A DNA stretch of 64,000 nt from Octopus sinensis (GCF_006345805.1 NC_043025.1:9300001-9364000); one strand, 5' to 3'. Positions 26,088-62,890 are shown, counted from the first letter of the stretch. The notes: generated from the sequence alone by a model not told the origin. Numbers and translations are program-made.

Positions 26088-26121
<34 letters not shown>

Positions 26122-26907: not shown

Positions 26908-26975
<68 letters not shown>

Positions 26976-28283: not shown

Positions 28284-28363
<80 letters not shown>

Positions 28364-29910: not shown

Positions 29911-29959
<49 letters not shown>

Positions 29960-30204: not shown

Positions 30205-30280
<76 letters not shown>

Positions 30281-30587
30281 AATCTCTGAACGAGGTATAA
30301 ACAATAACTGCACGACAATGTGAGGTATATTTGCCATCTCAATATGGCTAACCACTAAGGGTGGGTGTTACTGTAGCCTGTAGCCCCAGGAGAACATCTC
30401 CTCCAGCTGGCTATAGGCACACTCTCTGTGCCCTATCGGTATTTGCAAAGGGAGGTCATCGTTCCCTCGTCAACCTAAGTGATACGCACGGACTGCAGTT
30501 TCTGGGTCTTCACCCGTCATCAGCGTACGACAATCACCGGTTTATATATGTATACCGCTGTTCAATTGTGGAGAGTATATTAACTGC

Positions 30588-30618
<31 letters not shown>

Positions 30619-33600
30619 TGTATGTATGTATTAATGTATGTATGTATGTATGTATGTATGTATGTATGTATGTATGTATGTATTAATGTATGTATGTATG
30701 TATGTATGATGTATGTATGTATGTATGTATGTATGTATTAATGTATGTATGTATGTATGTATGTATGTATGTATGTATGTATTAATGTATGTATGTATGT
30801 ATGTATGATGTATGTATGTATGTATGTATGTATGTATGTATGCGTTTGTATATATATATATATAATTATTGATGCATTAGGCTTTAGTGATCTAATTACT
30901 TTTGTTTCCATTAATTAATGTCCCAGTAATTTGCAATTTCTATAACTTTCAGACAACACTACGATGTGGTGGCTTTGATGCTGGCCCAGGTTAGTCCACA
31001 TATACATATTATATGCACTATGTAGTATACATTAGTGTTCTAACGTTGAATACTAATAAACCCGGCTGTTTTATGAAACCCTTGTTAATACAGCAACATC
31101 AGGAGGCGCAATGGCCCAGTGGTTAGGGCAGCGGACTCGCGGTCGGAGGATCGCGGTTTCGATTCCCAGACCGGACGTTGTGTGTGTTTATTGAGTGAAA
31201 ACACCTAAAGCTCCACGAGGCTCCGGCAGGGGGTGGTGGCGATCCTTGTTGTACTCTTTCACCACTCTTGCTCCCACTCTTTCTTCTGTTGGCCTGCTCG
31301 CCTAGCCAGCGGGGTGGCGTCATTCGAAGGCTAAAACAGTGCGAACGCATTGTGACCAGCGATGTGTAACAACATCTGATGGTCTGGGGTGGTGGCGACC
31401 CCTGTTGTACTCTTTCGCCCCAACTTTCTCTCGCTCTTTCTTCCTGTTTCTTGTCCCCGACTTCCTACGCAACTGCTGAGCCTGGATGCACATTCATCCA
31501 TCCGTCGATGCTCTCGGTGTCGGGGGTTGACCTGCTTTCTCTTCTGCGGGTCTTACGAATAGCAAAGGTTCACGTTTCGGACTTCTCCCATCTTCTGAGC
31601 TCTGGGACGAAGACCGTTCGCTCAACGGCAACATCAAAAGAATTCGTTAGAAATTATAATTCTTCTTTACTAGACTTAATCTGCTAATCCTGTGTTCGTC
31701 TATTTCAACTCACCTAAAGCTTATTATTGCGAGGTATGAACGTAGATGACAGCTTGATAGACTTATCATGTCTCTAACACACACCCATAGCAAGTTATAG
31801 AGGGACAATATGGAAGGTCCACTTCACTGACAAACATCAAATGTACACAATCAGTTTAATCAAGTCCCCAGTAGAAGACACAAACGATACCTTGATATCT
31901 ACCCCGATTTTTATGCAACTTTACATTCTTTGTTGTTTTTTTATCTCTATAAAGAGTCAAGTGGAATTGGATATCAAGAACTGCAACAAAATGACACCCT
32001 TGCTTCTAGCTGTCTCCGAGGGTCATCTCGGAATGACCCACAAGCTAGTTTTACATAAAGCTGATATAAAGGCGGTTGATGCAGATAATAATAACTGCCT
32101 GCACCTTGCTGTGAAGAAAGGGGTATTTCATTCTGAGGACGAGACCGTAGAGATTTTAGATAAGGTAAGTCTTAAACTCGTTTATAAATATATGAGAGAG
32201 AGACAAACAGACAGACAGACATTGCTTGTCATGTCTCTATTCACATCCATCTCTCTCTCATCTCTTTTTCCCTTCCCCCGCTATTCTCTCTCTCCTCTCT
32301 CCCTCCCTTTAACCTCACCATCAGAACATCACCCCTCTGCTAAGATTATTACTTTACCTCCACCTCCTGTCATGGACGCTTCTCTCTCCCCTTTTTTTCT
32401 CTCTCTCTCCTTTTCTTTCTCCCCCCTTCTGTCTCACTCTCCACCTTATCCTCCTTTTCTCTCTCATTTTTCTTTCTCTTCTCTTTCCCTTTAACTAATC
32501 ACTTGAAAGCGTTACAATTACCTCATGTCATGGACGCTTACCTCTCACTCTTTTTCTATTTCTCCTTTTTTTCTCTCTGTCCCTCCTTTTTCTCTACCTC
32601 CTCCTTTTCTCTCTCTCTCTCTCTCCTTTTTCTTTCTCACTCATTTCTTTCTCCCTCTTCTCCCTCCTCTCCCTCTAATCATGTGAAAGCATATTGTGCT
32701 TTATTATAGTGATACTTGTTCCGCTATATTTCTTATGGTTTGATTTTGATTTTGATTATGTTTTGATGCTTTGATTTTGTTTCATATTGTTTTTTATCGA
32801 ATATTTTGTGATATTTGTGACTGACAAATAGATATTTATTCATTAAATACGTGTAAAGTTGGTGTTAATACGTTTTGTTCTGTTCAATATAATAGCCATA
32901 TATTTAAAGTTTTGGTTTTTTTTTCAGACAAGAAAATAAATTCCGAATGTAGTAAAGCTGTAGGAACAGCAAAGAAAGATTGGTTATTTGCCCTTATAAG
33001 ATGGAACACATTTGCCAGCAGGTGGCAGGGTAAAACACCCAATCTTTCTTTGTAATTGTTAGAGCTTTACTGCATTCGAAATTTAATTTCTTGTGTGTAA
33101 AATACCAAATACGTTCGACATTTCTACAGTTTGTTTATAAAATATTGTCGTATTTAAAATATTGTTTTACTGTAGAAAACAGAGTAAGAACAAATGGAAA
33201 TGACAAATAGACTTAACTTGAGGTGATGTAGGAACTCAATACTGTGTAATGAGTTTAATCACTGGATGTGCAAAGTATGTGTAGATGGAGGCGAATTGTT
33301 GTGTAATTTGGGGCATCAATGATGTGTATTTGAGTAACATTGTACTCATCGTTTTATATTTCATCATTTGTAGTTCTACAATATGCTTAATTTGAGCAAA
33401 AAAGAGAGGCGATCTGGCACAATCGTTGCTATGTATCTAGCCTATTCTGGAGGAAACTTTCACCATAAAAACAAAAGTGATGAGACCCCACTGGATCTCA
33501 TCGAATATCCAGTTTTAAAGCAGAAAATGAAAACGCTTTTCCCATCGCTGTAAGTATTCTCTGACATTGAAAAGATAAACTGGTTCATTTTTATTTTGTA

Positions 33601-36600
33601 TATAATTATGTTTATATGTTTGTTTTGTTTAGGTTTAGTTCTATCAGTACGTTATACTGTGGCTAGCATCTTGACCAAAGGCCATCCAGCAACAGTAAGA
33701 AGAACAATTAACAGAAAATGCTGTTGTTAGGGATCAAAGGACATCTATTTTCATTAACATGATTGGCTGTGTTGATAGCTATATACCTCACTGACTCCCT
33801 CATCTACGTCTCTCACATCCTCATTTTGAAGTTCTGGGACCACCAGGAATATGTAGTACTTAATAATGAAACGAATAAACACATTTTGAAATTGTTACTT
33901 GGAAGTAGCTAGAATTTATCTGTCTACCGACATTTTTTGTGTCTCCTCTGTCCAAATCAGTCACTTTCACATGGACAAGTGGACAAATTGTGAGAAGATG
34001 TAGAGCAATGATTTCTTCAGATACACCAAGAACAGCTACATCATCCATGGCAGATAACAGAGCTTTCTCTATAAACCTGGATTCAGCCATAACTAGAGAC
34101 AGGTTTGGAAGCAGTGTTTTCTGATATGATCCTTCATTGTGTGATCCGGTAAAGATTTTTGCTTTAATATATGTCATTTCGATGCTCAATTCAGAGATCA
34201 TTTATCGAATATCTGCAATTTCCTTATGGATGGGTTGTTTTGTTTGACAGTACTTGTTGGAAAAGACACACAGGTCAGGCAATAAAAGGACCACTTTGGT
34301 AGTTGGACCATTTCCTATATTCCATCCATCATAGAACCATTGTGTACCTTTTGTTGGACTGGGACCATCAGGCGGTTCGTGGTACATTTAAGGCAGATCA
34401 AAGCATGACATTTATTGCATTCAATACATCAATTCTCAAAAGATTTCTCTGGTTTTGTACATATATGTCAGACATGATTCTCAGGGTATTATTCTGTTTT
34501 ATGACTGTGACCTGTTTTGTTACATACTGTTCACTATACAAGGAGCCATGGCAGTTGTATCCTGTCTGTCCAACCATACAATTCAAAATTAAATGTCTAA
34601 ATATAGAGAACTTGTTAAACAGGTTAAGTTTTGTTCAGAAGAAATTAGTTCTCTACTAGAATTGAAAAATATTTCTGGAATGTATGGAGCAATTTTTGTG
34701 ATGTCCCAGAGTCAAGACACATATTTAACATGTATGTGAATGCTACACGAATATATGTAGCAGTCATACCACAAATCTGCATTTATGTAATTATTTAAAG
34801 AAAATACTTTTATGTACTCTTATTGGTCCTTGTAGTGTCTCATGATATTCTGTACTCTAAACATGTACTCAATGCGATATTTGTTATAAACTAATGTTAT
34901 CGGTGGGATGTGTTTATGTCTTGTTCCACAGATGTCTGCTGTGTGAAGTTAACGAACCTACAGTGAAGTTCCAACCATGTGGACACACCGTTACATGCAA
35001 AGATTGCTGTTTAAAAGTTCAGCGTAAAACTTGTCCAAAGTGTCAACAGATTATAGTTGAGAAAAGCGGATTCGGTAAGAATACAATTTGATGATCTGTC
35101 TGTTTGTCTCATTGACATTATGCTGTTGAATAATGTACTTCGTGTTACTATGTAGAGTCACACCTGTCATAAATGTAGCAGATTTATGATAAAAAGTTTT
35201 CCAGGTATCTTTCCTTATTGATACTTTATCAATCACCTCATTCACCAAACTTTGTCTTCATCCAAATACAAGGCTTGCCACTGTCTGCAAGATAAGACTA
35301 ATGAGGGATATTGCAAGTTAAACGGTGACTAATAGACATATTAATAAAACTCCAGAGTTCTTTCAGTAAATATCAAGTTTTTACAGTGTGGAGGTACATG
35401 GCCTAGTGGTTAGAGCAGCGGACTCGCGGTTAAGGGATCGCGCGTTCGAATCTCAGACCGGGCGATGTATGTGTTTATGAGCGAAACATCTAAGCTCTAC
35501 GCGGCTCCGGGAGAAGGGAATGGCGAAACTTCTGCTGGCTCTTTCGCCACAACTTTCTCTCACTCTTTCCTCCTGCATCTTGCAGCTCACCTGCGACGGA
35601 CTGGCGTCTCATCCAGGTGGAATACCTATACGCCAAGGAAACCGGGAAACCGGCCCTTATGAGCCAGACATTGCTCGAGAAGGAACAAACAAAGTTTTTA
35701 CAGTCAATTGTGAGTGACTAGAGGTAATTAGTAATTCATTATTTAACAGAGTGTAGTGGCTACTTTTAAAACGGCACCAATAACAATGAAGTCACAAACT
35801 AATTTGCAGAACAAGATCTCTCAACTGAGGTGGGGAGCAGAATTAAGGGACTGAATAAAAAGTTTTGCCTTAAGAGGGGAAATATGGCTGCTTCTGGTAG
35901 GGAGAGCAGAGAGAGAAAGACAGATAGAGAGTGACGGGGGAGTGATAGAGAGAGGGAGAGAGAGGAGTGATAAAGGGGAGAGAGAGGGATAGAAGAGTGA
36001 TAAAGAGGAGGGAGGGAGCAGTGATAAAGAGGAGTGAGAAAAGATGGGGAAGTATAAAGATGAGTGGAGTGGGGATCGGTGATGGGGTGTGGATGAATTT
36101 AGGAGGTTGCGAAAGGAGTATAATGAGTGGCAGAGGTAGAGGAGGGAAGGGATATTGTAAGGATAGGCTGTGGGGAATAGATTTAATGGGGACATATTGT
36201 GATAAACAGGGCTCACCAAGTAAATCGCCAATTGTCTTGATCCTTTGCCATTTCCTCTGTAAGGATCATTTCTCACCACTTTGCCCTACGCCTTTCCCGG
36301 GTTTCCCTGGTCCTTCCACATTTAGAGATCGGTACTTCTTTATGCGGCCGTCCTCATCCACCCACATCGCATAACCATACCAGTGCACATATCTGCTGCC
36401 GCTTACTCTTTTACTTGTTTCAGCCTTTTGACTGCGGCCATGCTGGAGCACCAACTTTAGTCGAAGAAATCGACCTCAGGACTTATTCTTTGTAAGCCTA
36501 GTACTTATTCTATCAGTCTCTTTTGCCGAACCGCTAAGTTACGGGGACGTAAACACACCAGCATCCGTTGTCAAGCGATGTTGGGGGGAACAAACACAGA

Positions 36601-39600
36601 CACACAAACATACACATACACACATATATATATATACATATATCCGACGGGCTTCTTTCAGTTTCCGTCTACCAAATCCACTCACAAGGCTTTGGTCGGC
36701 CCAAAGCTATAGTAGAAGTCACTTGCCCAAGATGCCACGCAGTGGGACTGAACCCGGAACCATGTGGTTCGTAAGCAAGCTACTTATCACAAAGTCACTC
36801 CTACGCCTATTTTAGCAACTTTTACTAAAATTTCCTAGTAACTAGATTTTCATCCTATTTAAAATCACCTCACTGATGTAAGGGACTTCGAGGGGTGGGA
36901 AATTTTGCTTGATATTTACATGAAATTTGATAGAGATAACCTCTATTCTTGAGTATCAGCTCTTCCGTAAACATTTCAGATATTTTCACTGCAACAATGC
37001 GTGGATGAACAGTTATAAGTGGTTGATGAGGTTTCGTGCATGTGTACTGAAGCGTTTTAAGCCACCCGTCATCATTTTCTGCTCCTAATGTTTAGAATTA
37101 TTAAGGGGGATGAATGATCTCCAAATGTCTTCGAGTATTTCTAGAATCAGAGAACATTCTGGTGAACTGTGATGTGGGGCAATTGAAATTAAAGATTACC
37201 ACCGGCAACATTTGACAAAGAGATCAGGTGTGTGTTTATCCTATATGAAGCAGCGTGCCACCTGTTTGTGGTTAGATCTTTGATGACCAACTTGGTTGAC
37301 ATTGGAATGAAGCAGAAAATGAGAAGAATGTTGGTTAATGAAGTCTAGAGGTGAGAGGACAATCACACATCATAGATTTGGAAAAGATATAACAAAAGAA
37401 AGGCAAAAGCAGGGTTATGAATTGGCGATGATTAAATGAGATGATCTGCATTGTTTGGATTATGAATAATGTCTTCGTAGAGATGAGGTTTAGGAAGGTC
37501 AGTTTATTTTGTGGTGGACGAAATATTCAGCGATCAGAGACTTGGAAATAGCTTGGTACTTCGAGTACGGTCAGTCAAAACCTCAACATACTGGCTGCCA
37601 GGGTTTGTTGGGATAGAATGCACATTATCTCGGGACCTTCCTTTCGATGGTTTTACAGAGTTCTGGCATCCTTCACTGATGCAAGACCCCCCGCCTATTT
37701 TTTCAACTGACTAGCACTGAACAGCAAGACCATTTCGGGATCATCATCTTTCCAACCAGGTTTTATCATTATTTTTCAGCCACATTCAATGGCTGGTCCT
37801 TTCAACTACAATCTGTATCTTCTTCAAGATAGTGTTTGCTTACCTATGTTAGACAACAATTGGTAGCAACCACCATCTCAGTCTGGTCCTCATAAAACCC
37901 TTACAATGAACTCAATCAGGGAATTGTCTACTGCACTCCAGCCAGTAGCTGTACAGTCTTCTATTAGTGTTTTATAACTCTCATCTTTCCCAACCTGGGC
38001 TGCATCTAAATCGCCTTCATGTGGAACAGTTAATTCAACAAGATGTATCAGCTTACATTCCTCACACCATATTGTTATCTCCAGCTTCTCCCTTGTTGCT
38101 ATTCAAAAGAGACATTCGCATCCGACAAGATCTGCTGCTCCCTCCCATTCTCATCCTCATTCACTTTTCACAGTATAGCAAATTATTAACAGAAATAACA
38201 AAATTATACTATAAAGAGAACTATTTACTTCAGGGACTCCAAAATCAGAGAACAAGGAAGTTCAGAAACCAGCACATCCTTCAGAAAGTAAAGTACTGCC
38301 AACTAGTGAGTATAAAATAACAGTACATAATTCATTTCTATAAACTTTACCTTCACCTGAGTTAGTTTGAGAACAGGTTCTGTTCCTAATTTCCTATAGA
38401 ATGGTTAGCTCTGAAATAATTCTATAATTCTATTAAAGGCATTGCTGAAATTTTGTAACATATCCACTGAGTTTAGATAAACAGGTTCTATTCCTAATTT
38501 CCTATAGAATGGTTAACTCTGAAAGAATTCTATTAAAGACATTGCTGAAATTTTGTAACATATCCACTGAGTTTAGATAAACAGGTTCTATTCCTAATTT
38601 CCTATAGAATAGTCAGCTCTGAAAGAATTCTATTAAAGACATTGATGAAATTTAGATAAATTAGTTTAGATAAATTAGTTGCCACAACAGAGTTAATATT
38701 GACTTTTGTTTGTCATTGGAGTTAAGCAGTAAATGAGAAGAATGTTGGTTAGTGAAGTTTAGAGACGAGAGGACGCCATGCCATTGGTTTGGCACATATA
38801 TAAGAAAGGAAAGACAAAAATAGAAAAGCAGTGTTATTAAGTGGTGATAATTAAATGAGATAATTCTTATATTGTAAGATTATGTAGAATATCTTACTAG
38901 AAAGAAGAGATTAAGGAAGGTTACTCTGTTTTGTTGTGATACCAATGTAGAAAGTATAAAAATGTTGACCAAAGCTATAGTGGTCACTAGTTAACCATTG
39001 ATGGTACTATAAATTGCAAAACTTTTAAATATTTATTTCAGAGTGTTCAAAGTTGGAGGCGAAGTGTCTCCAAGTAAGGGTAGAGAAGTCAAAGTGTGAA
39101 TGGCAGGAAGTTGGTGGGTATAAAATGACAGCACCTAATTCACTTCTATAAATTTTACCTTCACCTAAGTGTTTTTTTTTCTTATTTGTCAGATTGACTA
39201 AGATTCCTTTCCTAACTTCTTGAATGATTATCTGTAAATTAATAACGTTAACTAAATCACTGAATTCCTTACAATAACCATTAAGTTAGCAGTGGTAATA
39301 TGGATAAATTAGTTGAGGTAATAGAGTTAAAATTGTCTTTTGGAATAGGGAAGTAAAGCATGTTATTGTTTAGGAGTAAACGTGTGAGTTACTGACCATG
39401 TTTTTTTATATAAAGATTATTAACAGAGATAAAGAAATTTTACTATAAACTGTAAGACTTTTGAATAAACTTTTCAGAAAGTTCAACGCTGGAGGAAAAG
39501 CATCTTCTGAAAGTGGCTGAGAGCTGAGAAGGAAATGGTGGCACGTTGGTGAGTATAAAATAACTGAACCTAATTGCTTTCAGAAAATATTACTCTCGCC

Positions 39601-40293
39601 TGATCTAATGATGGAGAACCTGTTCCATTCCTCATTTTCACTTGAAAGATTAGCTTTAAAGTAACTCTATTAAACATGTCGAATTTATTGAAAATTCGTA
39701 AAATAACCACCGAGGTTAACACTTGATAATACGGATAATTTGGAAATATTCAATCGATTTAATATTATCATTTGGAACAAAGAAGCAAAATATGTTGTTG
39801 CTTCGGGGTAAACAGGTGAGTTAATGACAATGTCTTTGTTTGTTTTACATTTTTATTAAGTTTATTGATAGGCTGTTGTTTTTGTTATTGTTGCCGTAGT
39901 TCTTGCTAAAGCAGATATCTACTTTAATCTGGCAGACTTGAGATAAAAAGTGTTTCATGTATCTTAACCATTTTCTAATTTCTCTACTGGCAGAATTGCT
40001 TTGTTATAATTTATTACAACCTACAGAACACATCTTTTATTTTATTGCTGACGTTCTGGTAATTATTTCTTATTGTTGTATGTTTTTCAGGTAGGATTTT
40101 AGGAATTAAAAGTGTCCAGTTGGAAATTATCAAGCATGACAACCCTGGTAACACCGAAGTAAAGGGTTTCCAGACGCTCCGCAAATGGTTTACAGCCTGT
40201 GATCCTGAGAAACGCACATTGAAAACACTCAGAGATGCTCTTCTGGAAGCTGAGTGTTTTGAAGCACTCGAATGTCTACCGCAAACAGAGTGA
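24564..40293 (+). CDS. Gene A: Mind bomb-like ankyrin-repeat / C3HC4 RING / Death-domain protein (multi-exon)
   Basis: Phase-compatible GT-AG exons at 24564-24715, 26394-26550, 28539-29119, 30953-30989, 31955-32164, 33374-33549, 34932-35074, 38234-38305, 39042-39113, 39478-39548 (1 bp short) and 40091-40293. Most are independently supported by the inverted paralog. Start codon unresolved. Confidence 0.85.
24827..25370. mobile_element. Two adjacent family D SINEs in opposite orientation (24827-25035 -, 25046-25370 +)
   Basis: Mutually reverse-complementary bodies lying within an intron of gene A. Confidence 0.75.
26394..26550 (+). CDS. Gene A ankyrin exon 2
   Basis: ttcag|[52 protein letters not shown]|gttag; phase 2 to phase 0. 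Confidence 0.85.
26611..26911 (-). mobile_element. tRNA-derived SINE, family B
   Basis: Reverse complement homolog of 23636-23934. Confidence 0.85.
27572..27800 (+). mobile_element. SINE family C
   Basis: GGCGGCGAGCTGGCAGA..GAGTTCAAATTCC head; ends AATAAAGAAA before (TA)n. Confidence 0.8.
27828..28064 (-). mobile_element. Degenerate Penelope-like GIY-YIG endonuclease fragment
   Basis: [37 protein letters not shown] resembles the PLE motif L.G.C....VIYKA.V..YIG.TE..FK.R.NNHK.SF. Confidence 0.55.
28093..28278 (+). mobile_element. Penelope-like terminal repeat fragment between (TA)n runs, with degenerate hammerhead-like motif
   Basis: Contains CTTTCTGTAGAAGAGCGTAGGCACGAAACGTAAAA; a second copy lies at 15168-15340. 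Confidence 0.5.
28539..29119 (+). CDS. Gene A multi-ankyrin exon 3 (about 6 repeats)
   Basis: ttttcag|[35 protein letters not shown]|gtagg; positional counterpart of the giant exon of gene B. Confidence 0.9.
29955..30126. mobile_element. Foldback/MITE-like palindrome 3
   Basis: About 70-bp inverted arms (TATATCAAGCTAAGGTTAT..TGCAAGGTCATCCA..AACATTTAA / TTAAATGTT..TGGATGACCTTGCA..ATAACCTTAGTTTGATATA). Confidence 0.78.
30485..30529 (-). ncRNA. Minimal type I hammerhead ribozyme (in a Penelope-like repeat, about 30280-30545)
   Basis: Minus strand reads CGUACG-CUGAUGA-C-GGGU-GAAG-ACCC-A-GAAAC-UGCA-GUC-CGUGCG: intact core, 6-bp stem I, stem II, palindromic stem III and a GUC cleavage site. Confidence 0.8.
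30953..30989 (+). CDS. Gene A 37-bp exon ([12 protein letters not shown])
   Basis: tttcag|...|gttagt; same-length paralog at 58300-58336. Confidence 0.8.
31102..31387 (+). mobile_element. tRNA-derived SINE, family A (followed by a related body with another tail to about 31625)
   Basis: A-box TGGCCCAGTGG and B-box TTCGATTCC; inverted near-identical copy at 42990-43296. Confidence 0.85.
31955..32164 (+). CDS. Gene A ankyrin exon ([13 protein letters not shown])
   Basis: 210 bp, [25 protein letters not shown] donor; paralog at 55512-55721. Confidence 0.88.
33374..33549 (+). CDS. Gene A last ankyrin exon (Mind bomb-type pre-RING segment)
   Basis: [58 protein letters not shown]; paralog at 54045-54223. 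Confidence 0.85.
34932..35074 (+). CDS. Gene A RING finger exon (C3HC4)
   Basis: [41 protein letters not shown]; cag| acceptor and |gtaag donor. Confidence 0.92.
35390..35693 (+). mobile_element. tRNA-derived SINE, family B
   Basis: Homolog of 23636-23934. Confidence 0.85.
36402..36803 (-). mobile_element. SINE family E
   Basis: Homolog of 17110-17613. Adjacent 36260-36400 is an RTE-like C-terminal scrap ([12 protein letters not shown]). Confidence 0.78.
38234..38305 (+). CDS. Gene A 72-bp phase-1 cassette exon, copy 1 (linker-like)
   Basis: ttcag|[24 protein letters not shown]|gtgagt; the downstream intron is homologous to those after copies 2 and 3. Confidence 0.65.
38372..38660. repeat. 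About 100-bp intronic tandem repeat (about 3 copies)
   Basis: AACAGGTTCT.TTCCTAATTTCCTATAGAAT recurs at about 38372, 38480 and 38580. Confidence 0.85.
39042..39113 (+). CDS. Gene A 72-bp cassette exon, copy 2 (diverged Death-domain start)
   Basis: ttcag|[23 protein letters not shown]|gtggg. Confidence 0.65.
39478..39548 (+). CDS. Gene A cassette exon, copy 3 (Death-domain start; 71 bp, 1-bp deletion near 39522)
   Basis: ttcag|[22 protein letters not shown]|gtgagt; best match to the intact 72-bp exon of gene B. Confidence 0.7.
40091..40293 (+). CDS. Gene A terminal exon, Death domain
   Basis: [59 protein letters not shown]; matches the W..LG..L..I..NP..L..W..T...L..AL Death-domain pattern. 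Confidence 0.85.
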
Positions 40294-47551: not shown

Positions 47552-47754
47552 TCACTCTGTCTGAGGTTGATATTCAAGTACGTCCAAGCACTCAGCTTTC
47601 AGAAGAGCTTCTCTGAGTGTTGTGAATGTGAATTCTTCTGGAGCACAAGTTGCCGACCATTTGCGGAGCATCTGGAAGCTCTGTTCTGTACTGTTATTTA
47701 AATTTTCAATCTTGATCTTTTCCAACTGGACATTTTTAATTCCTAAAATATCAC
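47552..47754 (-). CDS. Gene B terminal Death-domain exon
   Basis: GDILGIKNVQLEKIKIENLNNSTEQSFQMLRKWS..TFTTLREALLKAECLDVLEYQPQTE*. Confidence 0.85.
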
Positions 47755-50260
47755 CTGCAAAACATACAACAATAAGAAATAATTGCAACAACATCAACAA
47801 TAAAATAAAAGACGTGTTCTGTAGTTTGTAATAAATTATAACAAAGAAATTATATCAGTTGAGAAATTTTAACAATAATTAAGAAACATGAATAATATAA
47901 GACAGTGTTCTCAATTTCTCAGAATCGTGATTAAAAGTTAACAAAGAAGTTGAAATAAAAGATAAAGATGGAGAAGAAATTAAAGGAAATTAATTGAAAA
48001 TTACTCTTGAGAAAATTTATGGTAAACAGATGGCAGGAAAATGGTTTGCATAGGCAAAAGTGTCACCAACTTTGACACCATTTCATCCATCGTTGCATTT
48101 TCTCTGCCTTCTATTCCTGGGAGGGTATTCAGGCCCCTCCTTCATAGGCTCCTATCAAAAGCAATTATCATTAGTCTTCGTGGCAAGATTCCCAAGTATA
48201 ACCAAGAGAGACTATTTTTTTTTGTTCCTTCTCGAGCCATGCCTGGCTCATAAGAGCCGGTTTCCCGGTTTCTTGACGTATAGGTTCCCCACCTGGACGG
48301 AACGCCGTTCCATCGCAGGTGAGCTGCTGCAAGATGCAGGAGGAAAGAGTGAGAGAAAGTTGTGGCGAAAGTTTCAGCAGAATTTTCGCCATTACCCTCT
48401 GCCGGAGCCGCTTGGAGATTAGAGGTTTTCGCTCATAAACACACACATCGCCTGGTCTGAGATTCGAACCCGCGATCCCTCGACCGCTCTAACCACTAGT
48501 CCATGTGCCTCCACAACAGAGACTATGGATATTATCCAACCATCTCATTCTTGATCTGCTGCTAAGTCTTCTGCCATTTGGTTCAGCTTGAAGAATCCAT
48601 CTTGCAGTTCTTTCCTGCAACATTCTAATCTGATATCTGTAGAAGCAGAACTGTAGAGATTTAGTCGCTCAACCTGAAGAGACTTCCAGATCTCTGCGTT
48701 GTGTGCATCTTTTGAGCAACCTAACACCAGAGACCCTTTAGAGGAATCCCATTTCGGCTGCTTGGTCTCATCACATGATCAACACCTGAAATAGTCATCA
48801 GTGCTTCTACTCCTACTCTCACTAAATAGTAATTACAACACATCAACCAATTAATATACAAATAGATATGATACGAGAATGATTTCAACTACGCAGAGTA
48901 CAAAATATACGTTATATATTTTGGAAGACACCAGATTAACCGTTCTGGGTTCATGATTCGTAATAAGTATTTCTTTTACTGGAACAATGCCACAATTTAG
49001 AGAGAAGTCGATAATGGAGAGGTTTTAGAGTAAAGCTGGCAAAGAGAAGAGTTTTAGTTTTGTAGGAAAGAAGACAGAAGTCACCATCATCTACACCATA
49101 CACATGCAGACGCTTAGGGCCTGAAGGAATCACTGCATCTACCAACATCTCCATCATCTGGGAAGTTATCATATTTGATAAGCAGGAAGGTAGAAGGGGT
49201 TAATGGGGATTCTAAACTGTGTACTCAATGCACACAATAAGTAATGTGAGGTCAGAGGTAGGTTGATGGAGAGGAAGGTGTTTGTGAGTAGTAGATATAC
49301 AGGAATATTTAGTTGTAAGAACAACTGTGAAAGGCATGGACGACAGTTTCTGTTACCTAGGTGACATAGTTAGGAGTGGAGGAGACTATTCTGAAAGCAA
49401 TGGGATTAGAGAAAAAATGAGGTGGCAAACTGTGCGGGGAGCTGTTTGTTATCCTTGCTGACAAATAAAATGTCACACAAACTGCCCACTCTTGGGTTAA
49501 CGACGTTGCATTTGATAATGTGGTCCTCTTCTCCTAAGGGAAAGAATGATGTCACACCTGGAACACTTTTCTTCTGACGACGTCTGCCAGATTAAGGCAG
49601 ATATCTGCATCAACAACAACAACAACCTACCAGTGAACTTAGTAAAAATCTAAAGAAACAAAATCATTGACATTAACTCATCTGTTTGTACATAAACAAC
49701 AACATATTTTAGATCCCTACTTTAAAAGAGAATATTAAATCTTTTGTGTCTTCTAATTAATCCATTGTACCAACCATGTAAACTCGATTTTATGAAGTTT
49801 CTTTCATAGAATTACTTAACAGCTAAACTTTCAATTGGAAATTAAAAGAATGGAAACTGTTCTCAATCATTCTAACAAACAAAAGCTTAAGGGAAGGCAA
49901 AATTTATAAAAATCAATTAGGCATTATATACTCACCAACTTCTCGCCATTTACTCCCTAACTTATTTGCAACCTTTTGAATATGTATCTCCTTCAATTTT
50001 AGGGACACTGAAATAAATAGTTCCAACTTTTATGCATCATGCTATAATTTATTTATATATAAAAGAATTTATTTGTCTCTATTAAAATATCATCGATAAT
50101 CATATAATGTAGAAATTATCACATTTAATTATCACTTGATAACACTGTTCTTAGTTTTATCTTTCCTTTCTTATATCTGTGCCAAATCAATGGCATGGCA
50201 TTTTCCTCACATCTCTACACTTCACTAACCAACATTCTTCTCATTTTCTGCTTAATTCAA

Positions 50261-50293
<33 letters not shown>

Positions 50294-53200
50294 ATGATGG
50301 TGATAGAACTTTCTTCGACGGTCAAAAGGCTTCAGTGACAGAAACAGTGTGTCTGATGTTATTGTTAATATAAGAACAAATTTACAAGGAATATGTAACC
50401 CTACCCACACCCCATTCCTCCACCACTATTATACCACACTTGTCAATAATGCTAATTATAATGAGATAATAAATTAATGTCATTATTAGACTTTAGAAAT
50501 TATATCTAATTAGTATCGCATAAATATAAACAAATATTTCACTTTTTGTTCCATGTGAAATCATGTCAAGACACAATCACATCTGGACATTACTGGACTA
50601 TAAGGGTCAATGACCCCAGTTTGTAGGGATGCGGTACTGGACCCAAATAAAACAAAATATTTACATGGAATAAACTGTTAGGTGAGCGAACAAGGTGGCG
50701 TTATGACAAAATAAGGTTACGTTTCAGACATACAATTGTAAGACTATCAATCAATAATAGCTAATTAATTATCATGTTAATGAGGTATACGGCTAGTACA
50801 GTAGCACATTGCCTGGCATTGCAATACTTGATATCTATAGAGATTGTATATAACATGTCAAAAGGATATCTAACCATCGTTATAATGATATCTATATAGA
50901 TTATATATAATCTGAGTGAGGGATACGTGACTCCCATTATAATGTTATCTATAGATTATATATAACCTGACAAAGGGATATCTGACCATCGTTATAGTGA
51001 TATTTATATAGACTTTATATACCTTGACAAAGGGATATTTGACCATCATTATAATGATATCTATATAGATTATATATATTCTGACTGAGGGATACGTGAC
51101 TCCCATTATAATGTTATCTATAGATTATATATAACCTGACAAAGGGATATCTGACCATCGTTATAATGATATCTATATAGATTTTATATACCCTGACAAA
51201 GGGATATTTGACCATCATTATAATGATATCTATATAGATTATATATAATCTGACTGAGGGATACGTAACTCCTATTATAATGTTATCTATAGATTATATA
51301 TAACCTGACAAAGGGATATCTGACCATCGTTATAGTGATATCTATATAGATTTTATATACATTGACAAAGGGATATTTGACCATCATTATAATGATATAT
51401 ATATAGATTATATATAATCTGACTGAGGGATACGTGACTCCCATTATAATGTTATCTATAGATTATATATAACCTGACAAAGGGATATCTGACCATCGTT
51501 ATAATGATATCTATATAGATTTTATATACCCTGACAAAGGGATATCTGACCATCGTTATAATGATATCAATACAGATTGTATATAAGCTGAGAAAAGGGG
51601 TATGTAATTATCATTATAAAGATATCTCTATAGATTGTGAGGTGTGTGGCTTAATGTTTAGGGCATTCGGCTCATGGCAATAAGGTCGTAATTTCAATTC
51701 TTGGCGGTATGTCATGTCCTTGAGCAAGACACTATATTCCACACTCCTCGCCTCCACTCAGCTGACAAAAATGAGTCCTACCAGTTATTGAAAGGGTTGG
51801 CCTTTTCACATTCTGTGTTATGATGAATCCCCCTGAGTATTAGATTAAGGGTTCATATATCTGTGGAGTACTCAGCCACTTTCACGTTACTTTCATGAGC
51901 AGCCTGTTTCCTTGATTAGCAAACTGGATCTCTCATCCTCCTAACCGATGGAGTGCCAGTTTTCTATATAGATTGTATCTGAGAACAGTTGATATTATAG
52001 TAGTTCCATGAGCAATCACAGAAAAATGGTACCAGGGCCAGTACCAAATACTTACAATAATTTCTTTCACCAGTCAAATAACAACGACCAGGTTCCAAGA
52101 TTCAATTTAAACGTAAGAACGGAAATAAAACCAACAGTTAAAAAACACAGAAAAGTGTGTTTGTATTAACATTAATATAATCTAAAAACCAATAAGAATG
52201 AGTATAAATATGGATGGAAAGTGTTATTCAAATCATGTAGCAAGTGTTGATTATATATGGTTACAAATAAGGAGTTGTGTGTTCAAATCACATTAGGAAT
52301 TCCTATTCTATTCCTCTTTGTATATTTTATACGTGAACATAAATACTTTGTTTATATGTAAACATATGTTCACAGTTCATTACAGTCAAGACATTCAGTG
52401 AAATTAATTTAACGATCAATTCTCTTAGGATTAATATTGTAATTTTTTTAATTTATCACAACAATATATGTCCTAACCTGAGACATTCCGGGTACGTACC
52501 CTAACAAGAGATGACATCTCAGATCAAACAGTGGACTAATATTATTGTTTAGCATTTTCATAACATGATAAATTATGAAGAATTTCTGGAGGATAACTTT
52601 GCAAAATATGTTGAAACTATCGATGCCATCTTTCACCAAATAAACATTCACAGCAACACAAAACAATTCATTAAGCAACACAATTCATTAAGCAAAACAA
52701 TTAATTAAGCAATCAAAGCCTCTAATGTTGTTCTTTAATCGCTCAGTTGAGATTTTCTCATTGAATCTTCTATTTTACCAAAAATCATTCTGATGTTCTT
52801 GTAAGTAACATTGTCTTTTATCAGATACTGATAAATCATTAAGCCCTCTAATCACTCACAATTGACTGTAAAAAACATGATATTTACTGAGGGAATCTGG
52901 CAGCTATTAATATTTCTGTTAGTCGCCGTTTAACTTGCAGTATCACTCATTAGTCTTATCTTGCAAACAGTATCCTCTTGAAGTGAAGCAAACCTTGTAT
53001 TGGACGAAGACGAAGTTTGGTGGATGAGGTGATTGATAAAGTATCACAAAGAGAAAAGACACTTTTATCATAAATCTGCTACATTTATGACAGGTGTGAC
53101 TCTACATAGTAACATGAAGTATATTATTCAACAGCATAAAGTCAATGAGAAAACAGACAGATCATCAAATAGTATTTTACCGAATCCACGTTTGTCAACT

Positions 53201-56200
53201 ATAACTTGTTGACACTTGGGACAATTTTTAGGCTCATTTCTGAACAGCAATCTTTACATGTAACAGTGTGCTCACATGGTTGAAACGTCACTGTAGCTTC
53301 ACTAGATTTACACAGCAGACATCTGTTGAACAAAACATAGAGGCATAACACTGATGATATTCATTTATAACAAATATTGCATTGAGTACATGTTTAGAGT
53401 ACAGATTATTACGAGATACTACAAGAACCAGCAAAAGTACAACAAAAAATCTTTTTTAAATAATTACATAAATGCAAATGATATCTGTACAAAACCCTAG
53501 AACCCTTTTGAAAATTCATGAGTTGAATGCAGTAAAAGTCATGCTTCTATCTGCCTTCAATGCACAAGTAATCTCTTGATGATCCCAGTCCAAGAAAAAG
53601 GTAAAAAATGGTTCTATGATGGATGGAATATAGGAAATGGCCCAACCCACAATTTCAGTGCCTGACCTGTGTGTCTTTTCCAACTATTGCTGTCAAACAA
53701 AAGCAGTCCATCCACAAGGAAATTACGGATAGTCGATGAGGGATTTCCGAATTGAGCATCGAAATTGCAGATATTAAAGCAAAAATCAGAGGTATTCGAT
53801 TAATGAATGAAATATGGCGACTGTTCTCTATTGCAGGAGGCCAATAGGCACTTCTGGTTTGTGATTAGTGTGAAAAAGATGATGAAACGATGTGTGTAAA
53901 AGATGATGAAAAGATGATGTGGTCTTTGGTCAAAACACAGAATAACGTATTGGGAGAATTAAAACTAAACAAAACATATGAACATAATTGTGTACAAAAT
54001 AGAAAATTCTCTGCTTAGTCTTGTCATTGTTAGAGAATACTTACAATGGTGGTGGGAAAAGTGCTTTAATTTTTTCCTTTAAATTTGTATCGTTGATAAG
54101 ATCCAGCGGCATCACATTCCATACGTTTCTGTGGTAAAAGTTGGCTCCATTGTCGGCCAGAAAACAAGCCACTGCTAGGCTTGAAAGCTTGCCTCCTTTG
54201 CTAAGCTGGAGCTTTTTGTAGTACTACAAATGATGAAATATAAAAAGGACGAGTACAATAGTACACAAATACAAACAAAATCATAACATCAAGTCAAATA
54301 CAAGAAATATAATGGAACAAATATCACAATAATAAAATACCTATCTATGCAAGTGGCTTGATGAAGGCAACTGGACACAGCAACAGAAATACTTTGGGAA
54401 GAATATTGTGTATATTAATACAACCCCTGTCAGCATAGACGATTGGCATTAAATGATGATGATGATGACGATGATGATGATGATAAGGGTGATGGTGGTG
54501 GTTGTGATGGTGATGATCGCGACGATGAGGACGATGATGATGATGAACACAACAAGATAACAAAACATATATGTTATATCAGAAACAACAAAGAACACCT
54601 AAGACATAGCAATTTCTTCAGATGTAACAAAACCAACACCACACAGACTTATCCAAATATATCAACAATGTTTCCATAATTATTAAAGAAACATCTTTGG
54701 GTGATGAAGGTGAAGTAAAAGAAGTAAGAATTGGTGTCACGGTTGAGGCAACACACCAACACATTATATTTGATAAACTGTGGAAACTGTTAGTCTGACA
54801 GACAATTCCAGCAATGGAGGGAGAAGGGCATTTGACTGCCAGGAGATTTTTTTACCAAAGTGGACATTACCACAACACAAAGATGACCATCAAATGTCTG
54901 AAATACAGTCACACATCTGTAGAGACCGTTACTCATGTGGGAATCAGTGAGTTGCTCTAAGTGCGCAAAATTTAACAGTAAATACTGTTAAATCTACTGA
55001 TGGTTAGATGTTGATGTATTTGTATTTTCACACACATACACACACACGCATACACACACACACAAACACACACACACTCACACACACACACACACATGTA
55101 TGTGAGTGAAAGTAAGTGAACAAATGAGAGAGGGGCACTCAACCAATTCATTGGAAGTTACATGTATGGATCAAAACAGTTTGGATCATTAAACTATTTG
55201 ATCCATATATATATATATATATGTATGTATGTACGTACGTATGTATGTATATTGCTTTATTGTATCCAATCTCTAGTGTTCTAACATTCAATATTGTTAT
55301 GACATGTCCACATGAAGCCAGAGGATAAATATTGTGTACAAGAAGTAAGACAGGGAGCTGTTTTTTCAGAATCCCTCATAGAATGGAATGGATGTATTTA
55401 TCATGGCACTTGCATTCTAAAGGTTGCCATCATGTCTCTCTGTTTCTCTTTCTATCTCTTATAAATAAATCCACACGTATATATATATTTACAAATAATT
55501 CTAAAACTTACCTTATCCAAGACAGTTAAGGATTCATCCTCAGAATGGAACTCCTTTTTCCTCACCGCAAGGTGAAGACAATTGTTTCCGATATTATCGA
55601 CCACATTTACGTCTGCTCCTTTAGAAATGAATTCCTGCATTATTCTGAAGTTGCCGCAAGAGACAGCTTGAAGAAATGGTGTTATACCATCCCAGTTTGT
55701 TATGTTCAATTTCACTGAATCCTTTGTCGAAGTAAAAAGAGAGAATGAAAATTTACATGAAAACCAGGGTGGCTATCAATGTGTCATTACTGCCTTCTAC
55801 TGGGTACTTGATCAAACCGATCGTGTACATTTCATGTTTGTCAGTGAAGTTAGCCTTGCATAAGGTCCCTCTATAACTTACTATGAGTGTGTTTAAGAGA
55901 CATGATACATCTATTAAGATGTAATAAACAGATTGGTTCAGTCTAATCTACGTTTATCCCTCACTGAAGTAAAATTTAGGGTAGTTCAAATGGACCGAAC
56001 ACAAGATTAGCAGGTTAAGTTTAATAAAGAAGACCTTTAGGACTTGCGTATAATTTTGATGTTACTAAATTAATAAGGGGTTCATAAAATTTATGTCAAA
56101 GCAAAATCGAACGCACAAACATGGAGTGTGTGTCGTTAAGTTCTTCGGCTGGTTGCATTTTTAGGTGTGAGAGAATATATTCTCAATGTGTCTGGTGGTG

Positions 56201-58214: not shown

Positions 58215-58863
58215 AAAGATAATTTTTTGTGATATATTTGTGTTAATTTCATAATAATCTTGTACACATTTCGTATAATCTAGTCATTAAAAAACTAACC
58301 TGGGATAGCATCAACGTGACTACATCATAGCTTTGTCTGAAAGTTATTCAAAGAAGAAAGAAAAATATTAAAAAATACGAAAATCATAGAGGTTGAGATA
58401 ATTAATATTTGTTAGGTATTTAATTAATGAAAACAGATTTAATGAGCTACCTACAACCTGTTTACATCAATAATTATATAGACACACATAAATATAATCG
58501 ATATATACACTCTAACCAGTTGATTAATCATATATATATACATCTGAATAAACACCACAATGTGTTCTATGGTACAACGAACAACAAGTTGACCTCAGCA
58601 GGATTTGAACTCAGGATACAAAGGGTCGTAAATAAATAACACAAGGTATTGTATCCAGCAGTATCCAGAAACAGGAAGAGGTTAGAATCCTTGAATATTA
58701 CTGTTTGATATTAAATGAACCCTTAGATATTACTGGTATAGATTATATCGACTCTGGAATTATTTCAGCTTGGAACATAAACAGTAAATACTTGTAGGGG
58801 ATGATTCTGTATTTAACCCTGGGTCAGAGGAAAGAGGGACATTACAAGACAGGAAGAGAGAGA

Positions 58864-58902
<39 letters not shown>

Positions 58903-61756
58903 GAAGTATGGTGTTTTATGTGGAGTAAAAGTAAGAGAGAGGATTTGAACATGTGATGTTGTGGTAATGGAGAATGAGATGAAGTGAAAGATCTAGTCAG
59001 GGACAACAACAACAACAACAAAAACAACTACAACAACAACAGCAAGAACAACAATAACAATAAATATGGCGGTGATTACTGAATAAAGTAGATGGTAGTG
59101 TCATTACAGTAAGAGAGAGAAAGAAGAAGAAGGATGACCCATGATGCTGACTCACCTTAGAACTGCCTGATGGAGTAGTGTGTTACCAGATTTATCTCTT
59201 TTATAGTAATCAATGCTCGGATGCTGCAGTAAGAGATTAACTGTATCCGTGTGTCCCTTGTCCCAGGCCTGGTGGAGTGGTGTGTACCCATTGGTAGCCT
59301 CAGTGTTTACATCAATAGCAGGGTGCTTCAGTAAATGCTTAACTGTATCTGTGTGTCCCTTGTTACAGGCCTGGTGGAGTGGTGTGCTGATTGCTATCCT
59401 TAGCATTTACATCAATAGCAGAGTGCTGCAGTAGATGCTTAACTGTCTCCGTGAGTCCCTCGGCACAGGCCTGGTGGAGTGGTGTGTGCCCTTTTTTATT
59501 CACAGCATTTACATCAATAGCAGAGAGCTGCAGTAGATGCTTAACTGTCTCCGTGTGTCCCTCGGCACAGGCCTGGTGGAGTGGTGTGTGCCCTTTTTTA
59601 TTCACAGCATTTACGTCAATATCAGAGTGCTGCAGTAGATGCTTAACTGTCTCCGTGTGTCCCTCGGCACAGGCCTGGTGGAGTGGTGTGTGCCCTTTTT
59701 TATTCACAGCATTTACGTCAATATCAGAGTGCTGCAGTAGATGCTTAACTGTATCTGTGTGTCCCTTGTCACAGGCCTGGTGGAGTGGTGTGCACTGATC
59801 TATATCCTTAGCATTTACATTAATATCAGAGTGCTGCAGTAGATGTTTAACTGTCTCCGTGTGTCCCTTGACACAGGCCCGGTGTAGTGGTGTGTACTGT
59901 TTATTGTCCTTAGCATTTACATCAATATCAGAGTGCTGCAGTAGATGTTTAACTGTATCCGTGTATCCCATGCCACAGGCCCATTGTAGTTCTGTGCACT
60001 GATCACAATCCTCAACATTTACTTCATTATCAGAGTGATGCAGTAAGAGATTAACTATCTCCGTGTGTCCCATGCCCCTTGCCCGGTGTAGTGGTGTGTC
60101 CTGATTGCTATCCTTAGCATTTACATCAATATCAGAATGCTGCAGTAGATGCTTAACTGTCTCCGTGTGTCCCCTGAGACAAGCCCAGTGTAGGGCTGTG
60201 ATCCTATTGGTCGCCATAGCATTTACATTAATATCAGAGTGCTGCAGTAGATGTTTAACTGTCTCCGTGTATCCCTCGTCCCAAGCCAGGTGTAGTGGTG
60301 TGTACTTATCGTTCTTCTTAGCATTCACATTAATATCAGAGTGCTGCAGTAGATGTTTAACTGTCTCCGTGTGTCCCCTGAGGCAAGCCCAGTGTAGGGG
60401 TGTGACCCAATAGTTGTCCTTAGCATTTACATCAATATCAGAATGCTGCAATAGATGTTTAACTGTCTCCGTGTATCCCTCGACACAGGCCCAGTGTAGT
60501 GGTGTGTACTGATTGCTATCTTTAGAATTTACCTCAATATCAGAGTGCTGCAGTAGATGTTTAACTGTCTCCGTGTATCCCTCGACACAGGCCCAGTGTA
60601 GTGGTGTGGCCCCATAGTCATCCCTAGCCTTTACATCAATATCAGTGTGCTGCAGTAGATGTTTAACTGTCTCCGTGTGTCCCTCGACAGAGGCCCGGTG
60701 TAGTGGTGTGTACTGATTGTTATCCTTAGCATTTACATCAATATCAGAGTGCTGCAGTAGATGTTTAACTGTCTCCGTGCGTCGATCCCAACAAGCCAAG
60801 TGAAGGGGTGTGTTCTGACATCTATCCTTAGCATTTACATCAATAGCATGGTGCTGCAGTAGATGTTGAGCTGTTTCTGTGTGTCCCTTGACACAGGTCA
60901 GGTGTAGTGGTGTGTTCTGATCGCTATCCTTAGCATTTACATCAATATCAGGGTGCTGCAGTAGATGTTTAACTGTCTCCGTGTATCCCTTGACACAGGC
61001 CAGGTGTAGTGGTGTGTTCTGATCGCTATCCTTAGCATTTACATTAATAACAAACTGCTGCAGTAGATGTTTAACTGTCTCCGTGTGTCCCTCGACAGAG
61101 GCCCTGTGTAGTGGTGTGTACTGATTTCTATCCTTAGCATTTACATCAATAGCAGAGTGCTTCAGTAGATGTTTAACTGTTTCTGTGTGTCCCGTGACAC
61201 AGGCCCGGTGTAGTGGTGAGTACTGACCGCTATCCTTGGCATTTACATCAATATCAGAGTGCTGCAGTAGATGTTTAACTGTCTCCGTGTATCCCTCGAC
61301 ACAGGCCCAGTGTAGTGGTGTGTACTGATTGTTATCCTTAGCATTTACATTAATATCAATCTGCTGCAGTAGATGTTTAACTGTCTCCGTGTGTCCCTTG
61401 ACACAGGCCAGGTGTAGTGGTGTGTTCTGATCGCTATCCTTAGCATTTACATTAATAACAAACTGCTGCAGTAGATGTTTAACTGTCTCCGTGTATCCCT
61501 TGTCACAGGCCGGGTGTAGTGGTGTGCACTGATCGCTATCCTTAGCATTTACATCAATATCAGAGTGCTGCAGTAGATGTTTAGCTGTCTCTTCGTGTCC
61601 CTTGACATAGGCCAGGTGTAGTGGTGTGTACAGATCGTTATTCGGAGCATTTACATCAATGTCAGGCTGCTGCAACAGATGTTCAGCAATTTCTGTGTGT
61701 CCGAGAGCACAGGCCAGATGTAGTAGTGTGTCACCATCTCTATTTTGTTGATTTAT
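47552..61756 (-). CDS. Gene B: paralogous ankyrin / RING / Death-domain protein with a 25-repeat ankyrin exon (two frameshifts; possible pseudogene or assembly errors)
   Basis: Exons 61756-59156, 58336-58300, 55721-55512, 54223-54045, 53322-53181, 50007-49936 and 47754-47552 have the same phases as in gene A. There is a 2-bp deletion near 59386 and a 1-bp deletion near 53244. Confidence 0.85.
48221..48512 (-). mobile_element. tRNA-derived SINE, family B
   Basis: Homolog of the other family B copies. Confidence 0.85.
49936..50007 (-). CDS. Gene B 72-bp Death-domain start exon
   Basis: ttcag|SLKLKEIHIQKVANKLGSKWREV|gtgagt. Confidence 0.82.
50830..51636. repeat. Minisatellite of 55-57-bp monomers in a 169-bp trimeric higher-order repeat
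   Basis: The GGGATACGT variant recurs at 50920, 51089, 51258 and 51427, interleaved with GGGATATCTGACC and GGGATATTTGACC monomers. Confidence 0.92.
51640..51958 (+). mobile_element. SINE family D (full length, old)
   Basis: tRNA-like head GTGGCTTAATG..TTCAATTC, GTCCTTGAGCAAGACAC core-like segment, family D tail. Confidence 0.7.
53181..53322 (-). CDS. Gene B RING exon (1-bp deletion)
   Basis: [26 protein letters not shown]/..CPKCQQVIVDKRGF; 142 bp versus 143 bp in gene A. Confidence 0.85.
54045..54223 (-). CDS. Gene B last ankyrin exon
   Basis: YYKKLQLSKGGKLSSLAVACFLADNGANFYHRNVWNVMPLDLIND.., resembling the Mind bomb A.ACFLA..GA....N....PLDL segment. Confidence 0.85.
55512..55721 (-). CDS. 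Gene B ankyrin exon
   Basis: DSVKLNITNWDGITPFLQAVSCG..NCLHLAVRKKEFHSEDESLTVLDK|gtaagt. Confidence 0.88.
57140..57660 (+). mobile_element. Old R4/Dong-like RT fragment
   Basis: YRYLGVDENI..YYSCIKTIWTSELSAFNKTVAHNVFAVPVL aligns by eye with the thumb region of the LINE at 6976-10198. Confidence 0.7.
58300..58336 (-). CDS. Gene B 37-bp exon (QSYDVVTLMLSQ)
   Basis: tttcag|...|gttagt; paralog of 30953-30989. Confidence 0.8.
59156..61756 (-). CDS. Gene B giant exon: 25 tandem 102-bp (34-aa) ankyrin repeats plus a partial 26th
   Basis: Consensus VNAKDxxQxTPLHxACxxGHTETVKHLLQHSDID. Expected length 25x102+53=2603 versus 2601 observed, matching the 2-bp deletion near 59386. Confidence 0.93.
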
Positions 61757-62179: not shown

Positions 62180-62890
62180 GGGAACGTCATGACAAAGTCA
62201 CCATCCATCTACTGACTTCATCTGTCTCTCATCTCTTGGACTGAATATTTCCTGCCAGAATACTCCGTTGCAGTGTGTGATGACAGGCTTCTCTCTCACT
62301 CACATTCCATCAACTCTGACATGCTTCATGATTGGGTTGAATTTTCATAAACTCTAATGATAATGAGAATTAGAAGGTGGGGGTGAAGGAAGGAATGAAA
62401 TATCATGGACAAATATATGTGGTTAGTTAGGAACACAGGTGTGTATAAAATAACAATCAACTTTGAGAAGGTAATCAACAGAACAACTTACTTTATGTGA
62501 ATTTTGTTCAATATATTCTTTAATATATTGAGTGTCACTAAGCAAAAGTTTACTTATATTCTCATCGAATTCCATCTTTTAAAGGAAATATGCTAGAAAA
62601 AGAAAGAAATCAAAAGTTTCAAAACCTTATAAAATGAGGTAAACAACAATATAAAGAAGACTGTGTTTCTCACATTTCTCATAAAATATTACAAAAATTA
62701 GAAATTTCAATTTATCTAAAGTATTATTTACATCTGGATGTTCTTCCTGGCACTAATAAACCTAACAACAGTCATTGTGTTGAGTCTCTTGGTCAGCTAC
62801 ATTACTCTGCTTATTACAGTCTGATTGGTGACAAGTAAACGCTGAATATTGGAATGTACAGTCTGTTGGTCAGCCAGGTGGAGATACTGT
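62180..62890 (-). other. Gene B putative 5' non-coding exons/leader region
   Basis: Inverted homolog of 22740-23500 with conserved splice signals. Confidence 0.5.

Follow-up and report, generated by a model that had tools for sequence, protein, structure and literature searches.

In a 64,000-nucleotide stretch of Octopus sinensis DNA (GCF_006345805.1 NC_043025.1:9300001-9364000; hereafter the window, with positions counted from its first letter), a single minus-strand exon at 59156..61756 encodes 25 ankyrin units of 34 amino acids and a partial 26th, which Pfam matches as Ank. Judged by its exons, the gene to which this array exon belongs is a member of an expanded, Mind-bomb-derived family that joins ankyrin repeats to a RING finger and a death domain. 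The units are alike over most of their length and differ on one face, where the data support diversifying selection, and we consider it highly probable that the array evolves under such a homogenised-but-diversifying regime. As to function, we see about an even chance that the array is the putative variable intracellular sensor module of an ankyrin-RING-death-domain protein.

The array exon is bordered by an AG acceptor (phase 0) at 61756 and a GT donor (phase 2) after 59156. Behind a lead-in of 18 nt come 23 intact units of 102 nt (61738-59393), then unit 24 with 100 nt, unit 25 with 102 nt and 35 nt of unit 26. Tandem Repeats Finder reported a period of 102 with 24.6 copies, 85% matches and a score of 3031 at 59222-61731, and with the splice-bounded exon this bears out the 25 units of 102 bp given in a preliminary description made from the sequence alone; all 15 of the variable motifs quoted there were found in the array translation. 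Statistics on the array use 22 core units (units 2-23); unit 24, which is broken, and the diverged units at either end (1 and 25) are excluded. Mean pairwise identity of the core units is 83% in DNA and 68% in protein, with no identical pair and the closest two units 3 nt apart. The preliminary description also held the scaffold to be nearly invariant and often identical at the DNA level; this is overstated: the full 17 residues are exact in 5/22 core units, with five different DNA versions among those, and the first nine (codons 15-23) are exact in 16/22 and DNA-identical in 11/22. Core motif positions show single changes in 8/22 core units, and the 22 units display 21 distinct face signatures.

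Entropy exceeds 2 bits at six unit positions, 34, 1 and 3 in the turn and 8, 11 and 12 in helix 1, whilst helix 2 (positions 15-23) is near-constant at 0-0.53 bits, which agrees with the radical variation in beta-turn and helix 1 described before. The units carry the ankyrin TPLH motif and stack as helix-turn-helix-loop. An AlphaFold model of units 10-15, on to which the preliminary description had proposed to map the variation, is confident (pLDDT 96) although the overlapping-window alignment A4 was poor (340 columns); its helices span unit positions 5-12 and 15-22, helix 1 containing positions 8, 11 and 12, and the loop ahead of it positions 34-3. It is established that turn and helix-1 positions form the ankyrin concave face (PMC8229355; PMC4986451). 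The variable positions of the array would accordingly lie on the concave face, a placement made through general ankyrin knowledge rather than computed surface exposure. Foldseek aligned the array model to three designed ankyrin repeat proteins (DARPins; 6moi, 6moj and 6mol) with a TM of 0.87 and an rmsd of 1.5-1.9 Å. Six unit positions (32, 34, 1, 3, 11 and 12), which we take from the library design to be the DARPin-equivalent ones and which were chosen with the entropy table already known, hold 12.9 of the 30.4 bits (exact p 1e-5, or 2e-4 when the test is confined to non-core positions). The same positions differ between the repeats of 6mol in the printed alignment, and five of the six most variable array positions agree with them, as the earlier claim of overlap with DARPin randomisation implied.

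At the six DARPin-equivalent codons the 12 columns of 0-fold sites had a diversity of 0.437, and the 15 columns of 4-fold sites one of 0.107, a contrast with p about 1e-4 that was the same after removing four near-duplicate units; the test is tree-free, and its columns are not fully independent. The pairwise ratio of non-synonymous to synonymous change (dN/dS) was 3.7 at these codons (bootstrap 2.0-7.6), 0.34 in core and helix 2 (0.11-0.77) and 1.8 at the other eight positions (0.85-3.6). Codon models reject omega = 1 (likelihood-ratio statistics of 28-37), and there are no stops among 100 distinct variants (rough p 0.04) and none in units 2-23. Variation is thus neither evenly spread nor mostly synonymous: it is concentrated on the face with a non-synonymous excess, and the diversifying selection first proposed from the sequence is supported by the 0-fold/4-fold contrast and the dN/dS of the face, with a marginal result from the minimum-step count given below.

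Mutational explanations account poorly for this pattern. Third-position diversity is alike on face (0.160) and scaffold (0.146), with 0.44-0.48 at first and second positions of the face, a distribution that is not that of a local mutation hotspot. CpG hotspot or decay was rejected because the varying side of the CpG differs, variation across codons 11-12 falling on the amino-acid-changing side only and that of the scaffold CpG at codon 15 on the silent side. Targeted mutagenesis of the variable codons, whether adenine mutagenesis of a retroelement-like kind or RNA editing that became fixed, could draw on the observation that in these codons the third base is mostly kept and change falls on the first two, as AAY-type templates predict; the third-position adenines of the scaffold are nevertheless invariant (codons 4, 13, 17 and 21 in 22/22 units, codon 29 in 21/22), the face shows every one of the six substitution types (A-G in only 11/37), and we hold this explanation to be extremely improbable. 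Adenine-directed mutagenesis in particular is rejected by the invariant silent adenines, unless its targeting is codon-specific.

There is a signal of recombination among the units. A test resembling the pairwise homoplasy index gave p 0.0008, and different units have exact runs of 124, 101, 75 and 64 nt in common. The constancy of the scaffold is owed mostly to recent copying, purifying selection being only weakly detectable there. One 34-aa unit in a single exon may have been amplified from about six to about 26 copies, with unequal crossing-over and gene conversion keeping the units alike and shuffling them, and with selection favouring amino-acid change on the concave face. Somatic reshuffling of the array we consider very improbable.

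The host gene, which does not figure in the preliminary description and was modelled by comparison with an inverted duplicate in the window plus splice phases, runs on the minus strand. Its probable first coding exon (62492..62575; 28 aa) is homologous to the first exon of the paralogue model P0197 and is presumably spliced to the array exon, which its phase 0 donor fits; a short alternative upstream exon (62304..62329) encodes the peptide that starts the O. vulgaris model P0192. Downstream of the array, exon D (58300..58336; 37 nt), present in P0192, supplies the second helix of the repeat begun at the array exon's end, and exon E (55512..55721) encodes ankyrin repeats with the family signature. 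Exon F (54045..54223) holds the last ankyrin repeat, of Mind-bomb type, whose single PDB match is MIB1 (8v0e, E 0.00038), and exon G (53181..53322) a C3HC4 RING finger, one A short in the run 53237-53239. The death domain begins in exon H (49936..50007), where 22 of 23 residues match P0146, and is completed with the stop codon in exon I (47552..47754; Pfam Death, E 5.7e-6). The intron that separates the RING exon from those of the death domain contains a minisatellite of 57 bp organised in a higher-order repeat of 169 bp (93% matches; 50829-51636). The 28-aa first exon leads into ankyrin repeats, N-terminal MIB and zinc-finger domains being without match in the gene, and these Pfam domains found no match in P0123, P0126 and P0197 either. 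No NLR-type ATPase (NACHT, NB-ARC or nSTAND) is present in the gene's exons or in five full-length or C-terminal relatives, and no signal peptide or membrane segment is evident by eye in the exon translations.

Of 70 matches to exon E, 17 were named Octopus, often as MIB2-like, and the death-domain exon retrieved 70 cluster representatives, of which all ten looked up were octopod. Its members end either in two RINGs or in a RING and a death domain; the death-domain profile is nearest RIPK1 (E 1e-15), followed by ankyrin and PIDD death domains, and a structure model of P0146 shows ankyrin helices, a RING and a helical death domain (pTM 0.58). A tree built on exons E-F (33 rows; P0320 and P0340 left out as too short; deep branches poorly separated) places the window gene with P0133, P0146 and P0194 (100/100), apart from P0126. 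Exon E differs from that of P0133 at 6/70 residues, four of them at turn or helix-1 positions, compared with 3/151 over exon F, the first 26 residues of exon G, and exon I (p 0.03). P0126, a distant paralogue and the only one of 11 relatives checked with internal identity >0.5, has its own homogenised array of seven units, 82% alike, 47% identical to the window array, built on a different scaffold and placed in a separate supported clade; per-position variability is correlated between the two arrays (rho 0.45, p 0.007). The simplest reading of these sequences would be two independent array amplifications within the family. Homologue searches with the array, each confined to about 8000 candidates, gave best identities of 41% and 60% among the 120 matches listed, mostly generic long ankyrin proteins, with no Octopus record carrying this scaffold among them, which is weak evidence for absence; a 22-nt scaffold motif had no match in metagenome contigs. 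Two further observations concern family members and their death domains. In P0326, P0328 and P0352 the stretch from the RING to the death domain contains short tandem repeats, each of some 19 residues. The O. bimaculoides protein P0343, an adhesion GPCR with leucine-rich repeats, has at its end a death domain from the same clade; one leucine-rich-repeat adhesion GPCR-type receptor with a death domain is on record (PMC6408891), and homotypic coupling of the P0343 domain with the octopus family is possible.

Several results weigh against reading the array as a working sensor, beginning with two frameshifts in the array-bearing gene copy, both missed in the preliminary description. In unit 24 (59293..59392, minus strand; 100 nt) a 2-nt deletion in a short CA run near 59381-59386 ends the frame at a stop at 59363 and leaves the last repeats in another frame; in exon G the 1-nt deletion, a site that P0133, P0146 and P0147 read through, shifts the frame upstream of the RING's last two cysteines. 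Each indel falls in a slippage-prone run, so that the window copy may be either a null allele or one bearing two assembly indel errors. Other sequencing runs were compared over 58250-59420 only (the last 265 nt of the exon), in four runs whose kinds are guesses (X1, X2, X6 and X11), all as contigs. In X2 a 1228-nt contig (depth 12) covers 59156-59417 with two extra letters in unit 24 relative to the window, by which the frame is intact. Its match breaks off right at the donor, beyond which the contig has another 932 letters, a length close to the 844 of exons D-I; it has no listed difference over 59156-59362 and nine over 59363-59396, the listed differences falling on unit 24 codons 6, 8 and 11 and the turn, with four of 11 substitutions not itemised. 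An X11 contig likewise ends at the donor, with two forms of unit 24 upstream; the form resembling the window has the two letters present at depth 4.2 with only 24 letters on one side, below the bridging standard, and one low-depth joint skips a whole unit. X1 has a depth of 52 at 59381 without insertion (a shared deletion, or contigs ending there) and continues through the donor, and X6 barely covers the 59381 site. More than one form of the 3' units occurs in other runs, and the contigs taken together suggest splicing and more than one version of the array's 3' end; the X11 forms may, however, be paralogues rather than alleles, no C-to-D joint was listed in these runs, and X2 and X11 both lacked cover of exon D. 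A wider run search found part of the array in 20 of 24 rows with a best word share of 0.43, a measure that mixes repeat collapse with divergence and was not used, and no RNA run was among the rows listed.

On the same side stand the gene models and part of the statistics. The array exon is missing from the close models P0133/P0192, P0146 and P0147/P0194, all of which start after it, and P0192 joins the short upstream exon directly to exon D, skipping the array exon in frame; repeat masking, frameshifts or real exon skipping could explain this absence. The minimum-step count is 33 non-synonymous to 4 synonymous changes, a ratio of 1.8-2.5 with p 0.19 or 0.044 depending on kappa; the tree-based omega (36-50) sits at its bound and is inflated by recombination, for which reasons it was not used as an estimate; and purifying selection on the scaffold is non-significant in the column test (p 0.16). 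Similar units are moreover general in long ankyrin arrays (10.1101/858845), and the gene keeps a RING of the first type only, to be set beside the dispensable first RING of human MIB2 discussed below. The frameshifts, the core motif changes, the weak signal of scaffold constraint, the marginal minimum-step test, the general uniformity of long arrays and the broken genes nearby would all suit neutral, minisatellite-like amplification in a relaxed or dying gene, whose surface varies through lack of constraint. Relaxation, however, lifts dN to dS and never to four times dS, so that the 0-fold/4-fold contrast largely refutes this explanation; the stop-free units 2-23 and the frame-preserving forms in two other runs also speak against it, as do seven long arrays of low internal identity in our comparison set, which show no face-versus-helix-2 gap. 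We therefore regard neutral amplification as quite unlikely, and even if the window holds merely a dying copy, it would still be a clean case of diversifying selection within one exon.

In the sensor reading, the protein would descend from the C-terminal half of a Mind bomb ligase, and its long variable surface would bind changing non-self or pathogen-altered proteins. Binding could cluster the protein, and the RIPK1-like death domain may then recruit death-domain adaptors, with cell death or an NF-kB type response as the output. A larger proposal, which we put forward tentatively and find doubtful, is that of an ATPase-free family of polymorphic intracellular receptors, in which one-exon ankyrin cassettes, amplified time and again and reshuffled, provide allele-specific surfaces to a RIPK1-like death domain and whose repertoire is much under-annotated; if that reading is true, the repeat exon would be skipped or broken in gene models.

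The array could instead pick foreign proteins for a variable-substrate E3 ligase or restriction factor, the RING ubiquitylating them for degradation and the death domain being secondary. All eight RING ligands are kept in P0133 and relatives, the first 26 residues of the RING are unchanged in three relatives, and the ancestry is Mind bomb; the two-RING members P0123, P0125, P0127 and P0128, however, bear a Mind-bomb-like terminal RING at the place where this gene has its death domain. To ubiquitylate cFLIP, human MIB2 needs its second RING and can do without the first (PMC7815719); by that comparison, members of the death-domain type may act less as ligases than as adaptors, the equivalence of the RINGs being by position and without alignment to MIB2. 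A ligase role for the array appears rather unlikely to us. Diversifying selection may also come from something other than pathogens, such as cell-to-cell self/non-self tagging, gamete or mating conflict, or conflict with selfish elements: the data do not name the selective agent, the same repeat regime serves allorecognition in fungi (PMC13449251), and the same-clade death domain is found on the O. bimaculoides adhesion GPCR. An output through RIPK1-, PIDD- and FADD-like death domains and a large, fast-turnover cluster nevertheless fit immunity better, and the exon translations, by eye, reveal no signal peptide or membrane segment; we judge a non-pathogen agent to be improbable. The array-bearing protein is a concrete candidate for a cephalopod hypervariable recognition protein, with a clear molecular signature. 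It shows the homogenised-but-hypervariable regime outside the NLR architecture, where this regime would have arisen twice in one animal gene family. Caution is also due with octopus gene models, from which repeat exons like this can drop out.

The inverted duplicate used for the gene model is a paralogous gene lying tail to tail with the array-bearing one, on the plus strand at 23067..40293, whose exons B, C, E, F and G are identical to O. sinensis P0195. The duplication (22742-40703 on the plus strand, 47136-62893 on the minus strand) retains 66-83% identity including introns. The paralogue has two extra ankyrin exons (24564-24715 and 26394-26550), a RING exon (34932-35074) and a death-domain exon (40091-40293), and its counterpart of the array exon (28539..29119), with the same splice positions and phases, encodes roughly six diverged repeats of the ordinary kind (in P0195, mean unit identity is 0.32). 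An in-frame TAA interrupts its first exon, and its first death-domain exon is duplicated and broken. The O. sinensis model P0311 (XP_036370695.1, SCAN domain-like) is built from window DNA at 40695-41180, 47555-47754 and 48951-49199 on the minus strand and is a chimera of the gene's death-domain exon, an intronic open-reading frame (ORF) and a transposase-like fragment, whilst P0136 starts with a peptide from 14216-14683. Elsewhere in the window, ORFs of 120-257 aa at 548-5641 (plus strand), broken by stops and frame changes, resemble beta-propeller repeats by eye, and six ORFs at 994-5641 had no Pfam match; broken non-LTR retrotransposon reverse-transcriptase sequences were recognised by eye at 7024-9994 and 63123-63999 (both plus strand).

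No paper on the octopus ankyrin-RING-death-domain family was found, in a search outside of which lay most subscription papers and supplements, and no hypervariable recognition protein family in cephalopods is described in the literature searched. The parts consulted of an octopus haemocyte transcriptome (PMC4199593) and of the Aplysia immunome (PMC9334734) do not mention the family, and the supplementary surveys of high internal conservation (HIC) belonging to two fungal papers (PMC4986451, PMC13449251) could list octopus proteins. With DARPins the array shares its fold and most of its variable positions; it differs in being natural, with a 34-aa unit and about 26 repeats where DARPins have a few, and in that position 8, after TPLH, varies too and position 32 varies less. 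From MIB1 and MIB2 the gene retains a last ankyrin repeat that matches MIB1 only (in the PDB), followed by a C3HC4 RING, and some octopus family members keep two RINGs and bear MIB2-like database names; the gene itself is without the N-terminal MIB and zinc-finger substrate domains, has about 30 repeats against nine, and places a death domain where the terminal catalytic RING would be.

Overall, few metazoan repeats show high internal conservation (0.8%; PMC4986451), which is enriched with ATPase domains (22% vs 5.6% without; PMC13449251), and concerted evolution of metazoan repeats has been tied to host-parasite interaction (PMC5100051). From 227 long ankyrin matches a strict filter left 22 with ten or more regular units, of which two, the amphioxus protein P0057 and a further protein, P0095, share the high-identity, variable-face profile, the octopus array having the largest gap. 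Branchiostoma belcheri P0057 (Bbelb_286140) and a Littorina nSTAND3-ANK protein (P0204) are high-identity animal arrays with variation on the same face; they differ in having no RING and another scaffold and unit length, and are known from database records only. P0057 combines about 20 near-identical ankyrin repeats with a C-terminal death domain and is a possible convergent counterpart. The closest likeness in regime is to the fungal NLRs, a comparison the preliminary description drew rightly: in Podospora, the ankyrin repeats of NLRs are homogenised and polymorphic in number, and positive selection acts on their inner helix and hairpin (PMC4986451), so the principle itself is already published. 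The HIC repeats of Pa_3_8560 and Pa_2_8180 (PMC4986451, PMC13449251) have near-identical units, positive selection and recombination in common with the octopus array, some of them also with 34-aa units and with alleles sometimes pseudogenised. By our own calculation, which is not T-REKS, mean similarity to consensus over units 2-23 is 0.786, against an HIC threshold of 0.7 or more (PMC13449251); a stricter limit, 0.85 over 100 aa, is passed by the best run of three units (0.94) and not by the whole array, and both positive selection on the concave face and recombination among units were found. Unlike the fungal NLRs, the octopus gene has no NACHT or NB-ARC ATPase, carries its array N-terminally, has an effector end made up of RING and death domain, and belongs to an animal. 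A homogenised regime with a variable face is therefore already known and occurs in other animals; the octopus gene would work like an HIC sensor without being an NLR, and would descend from a Mind bomb ligase without being one.

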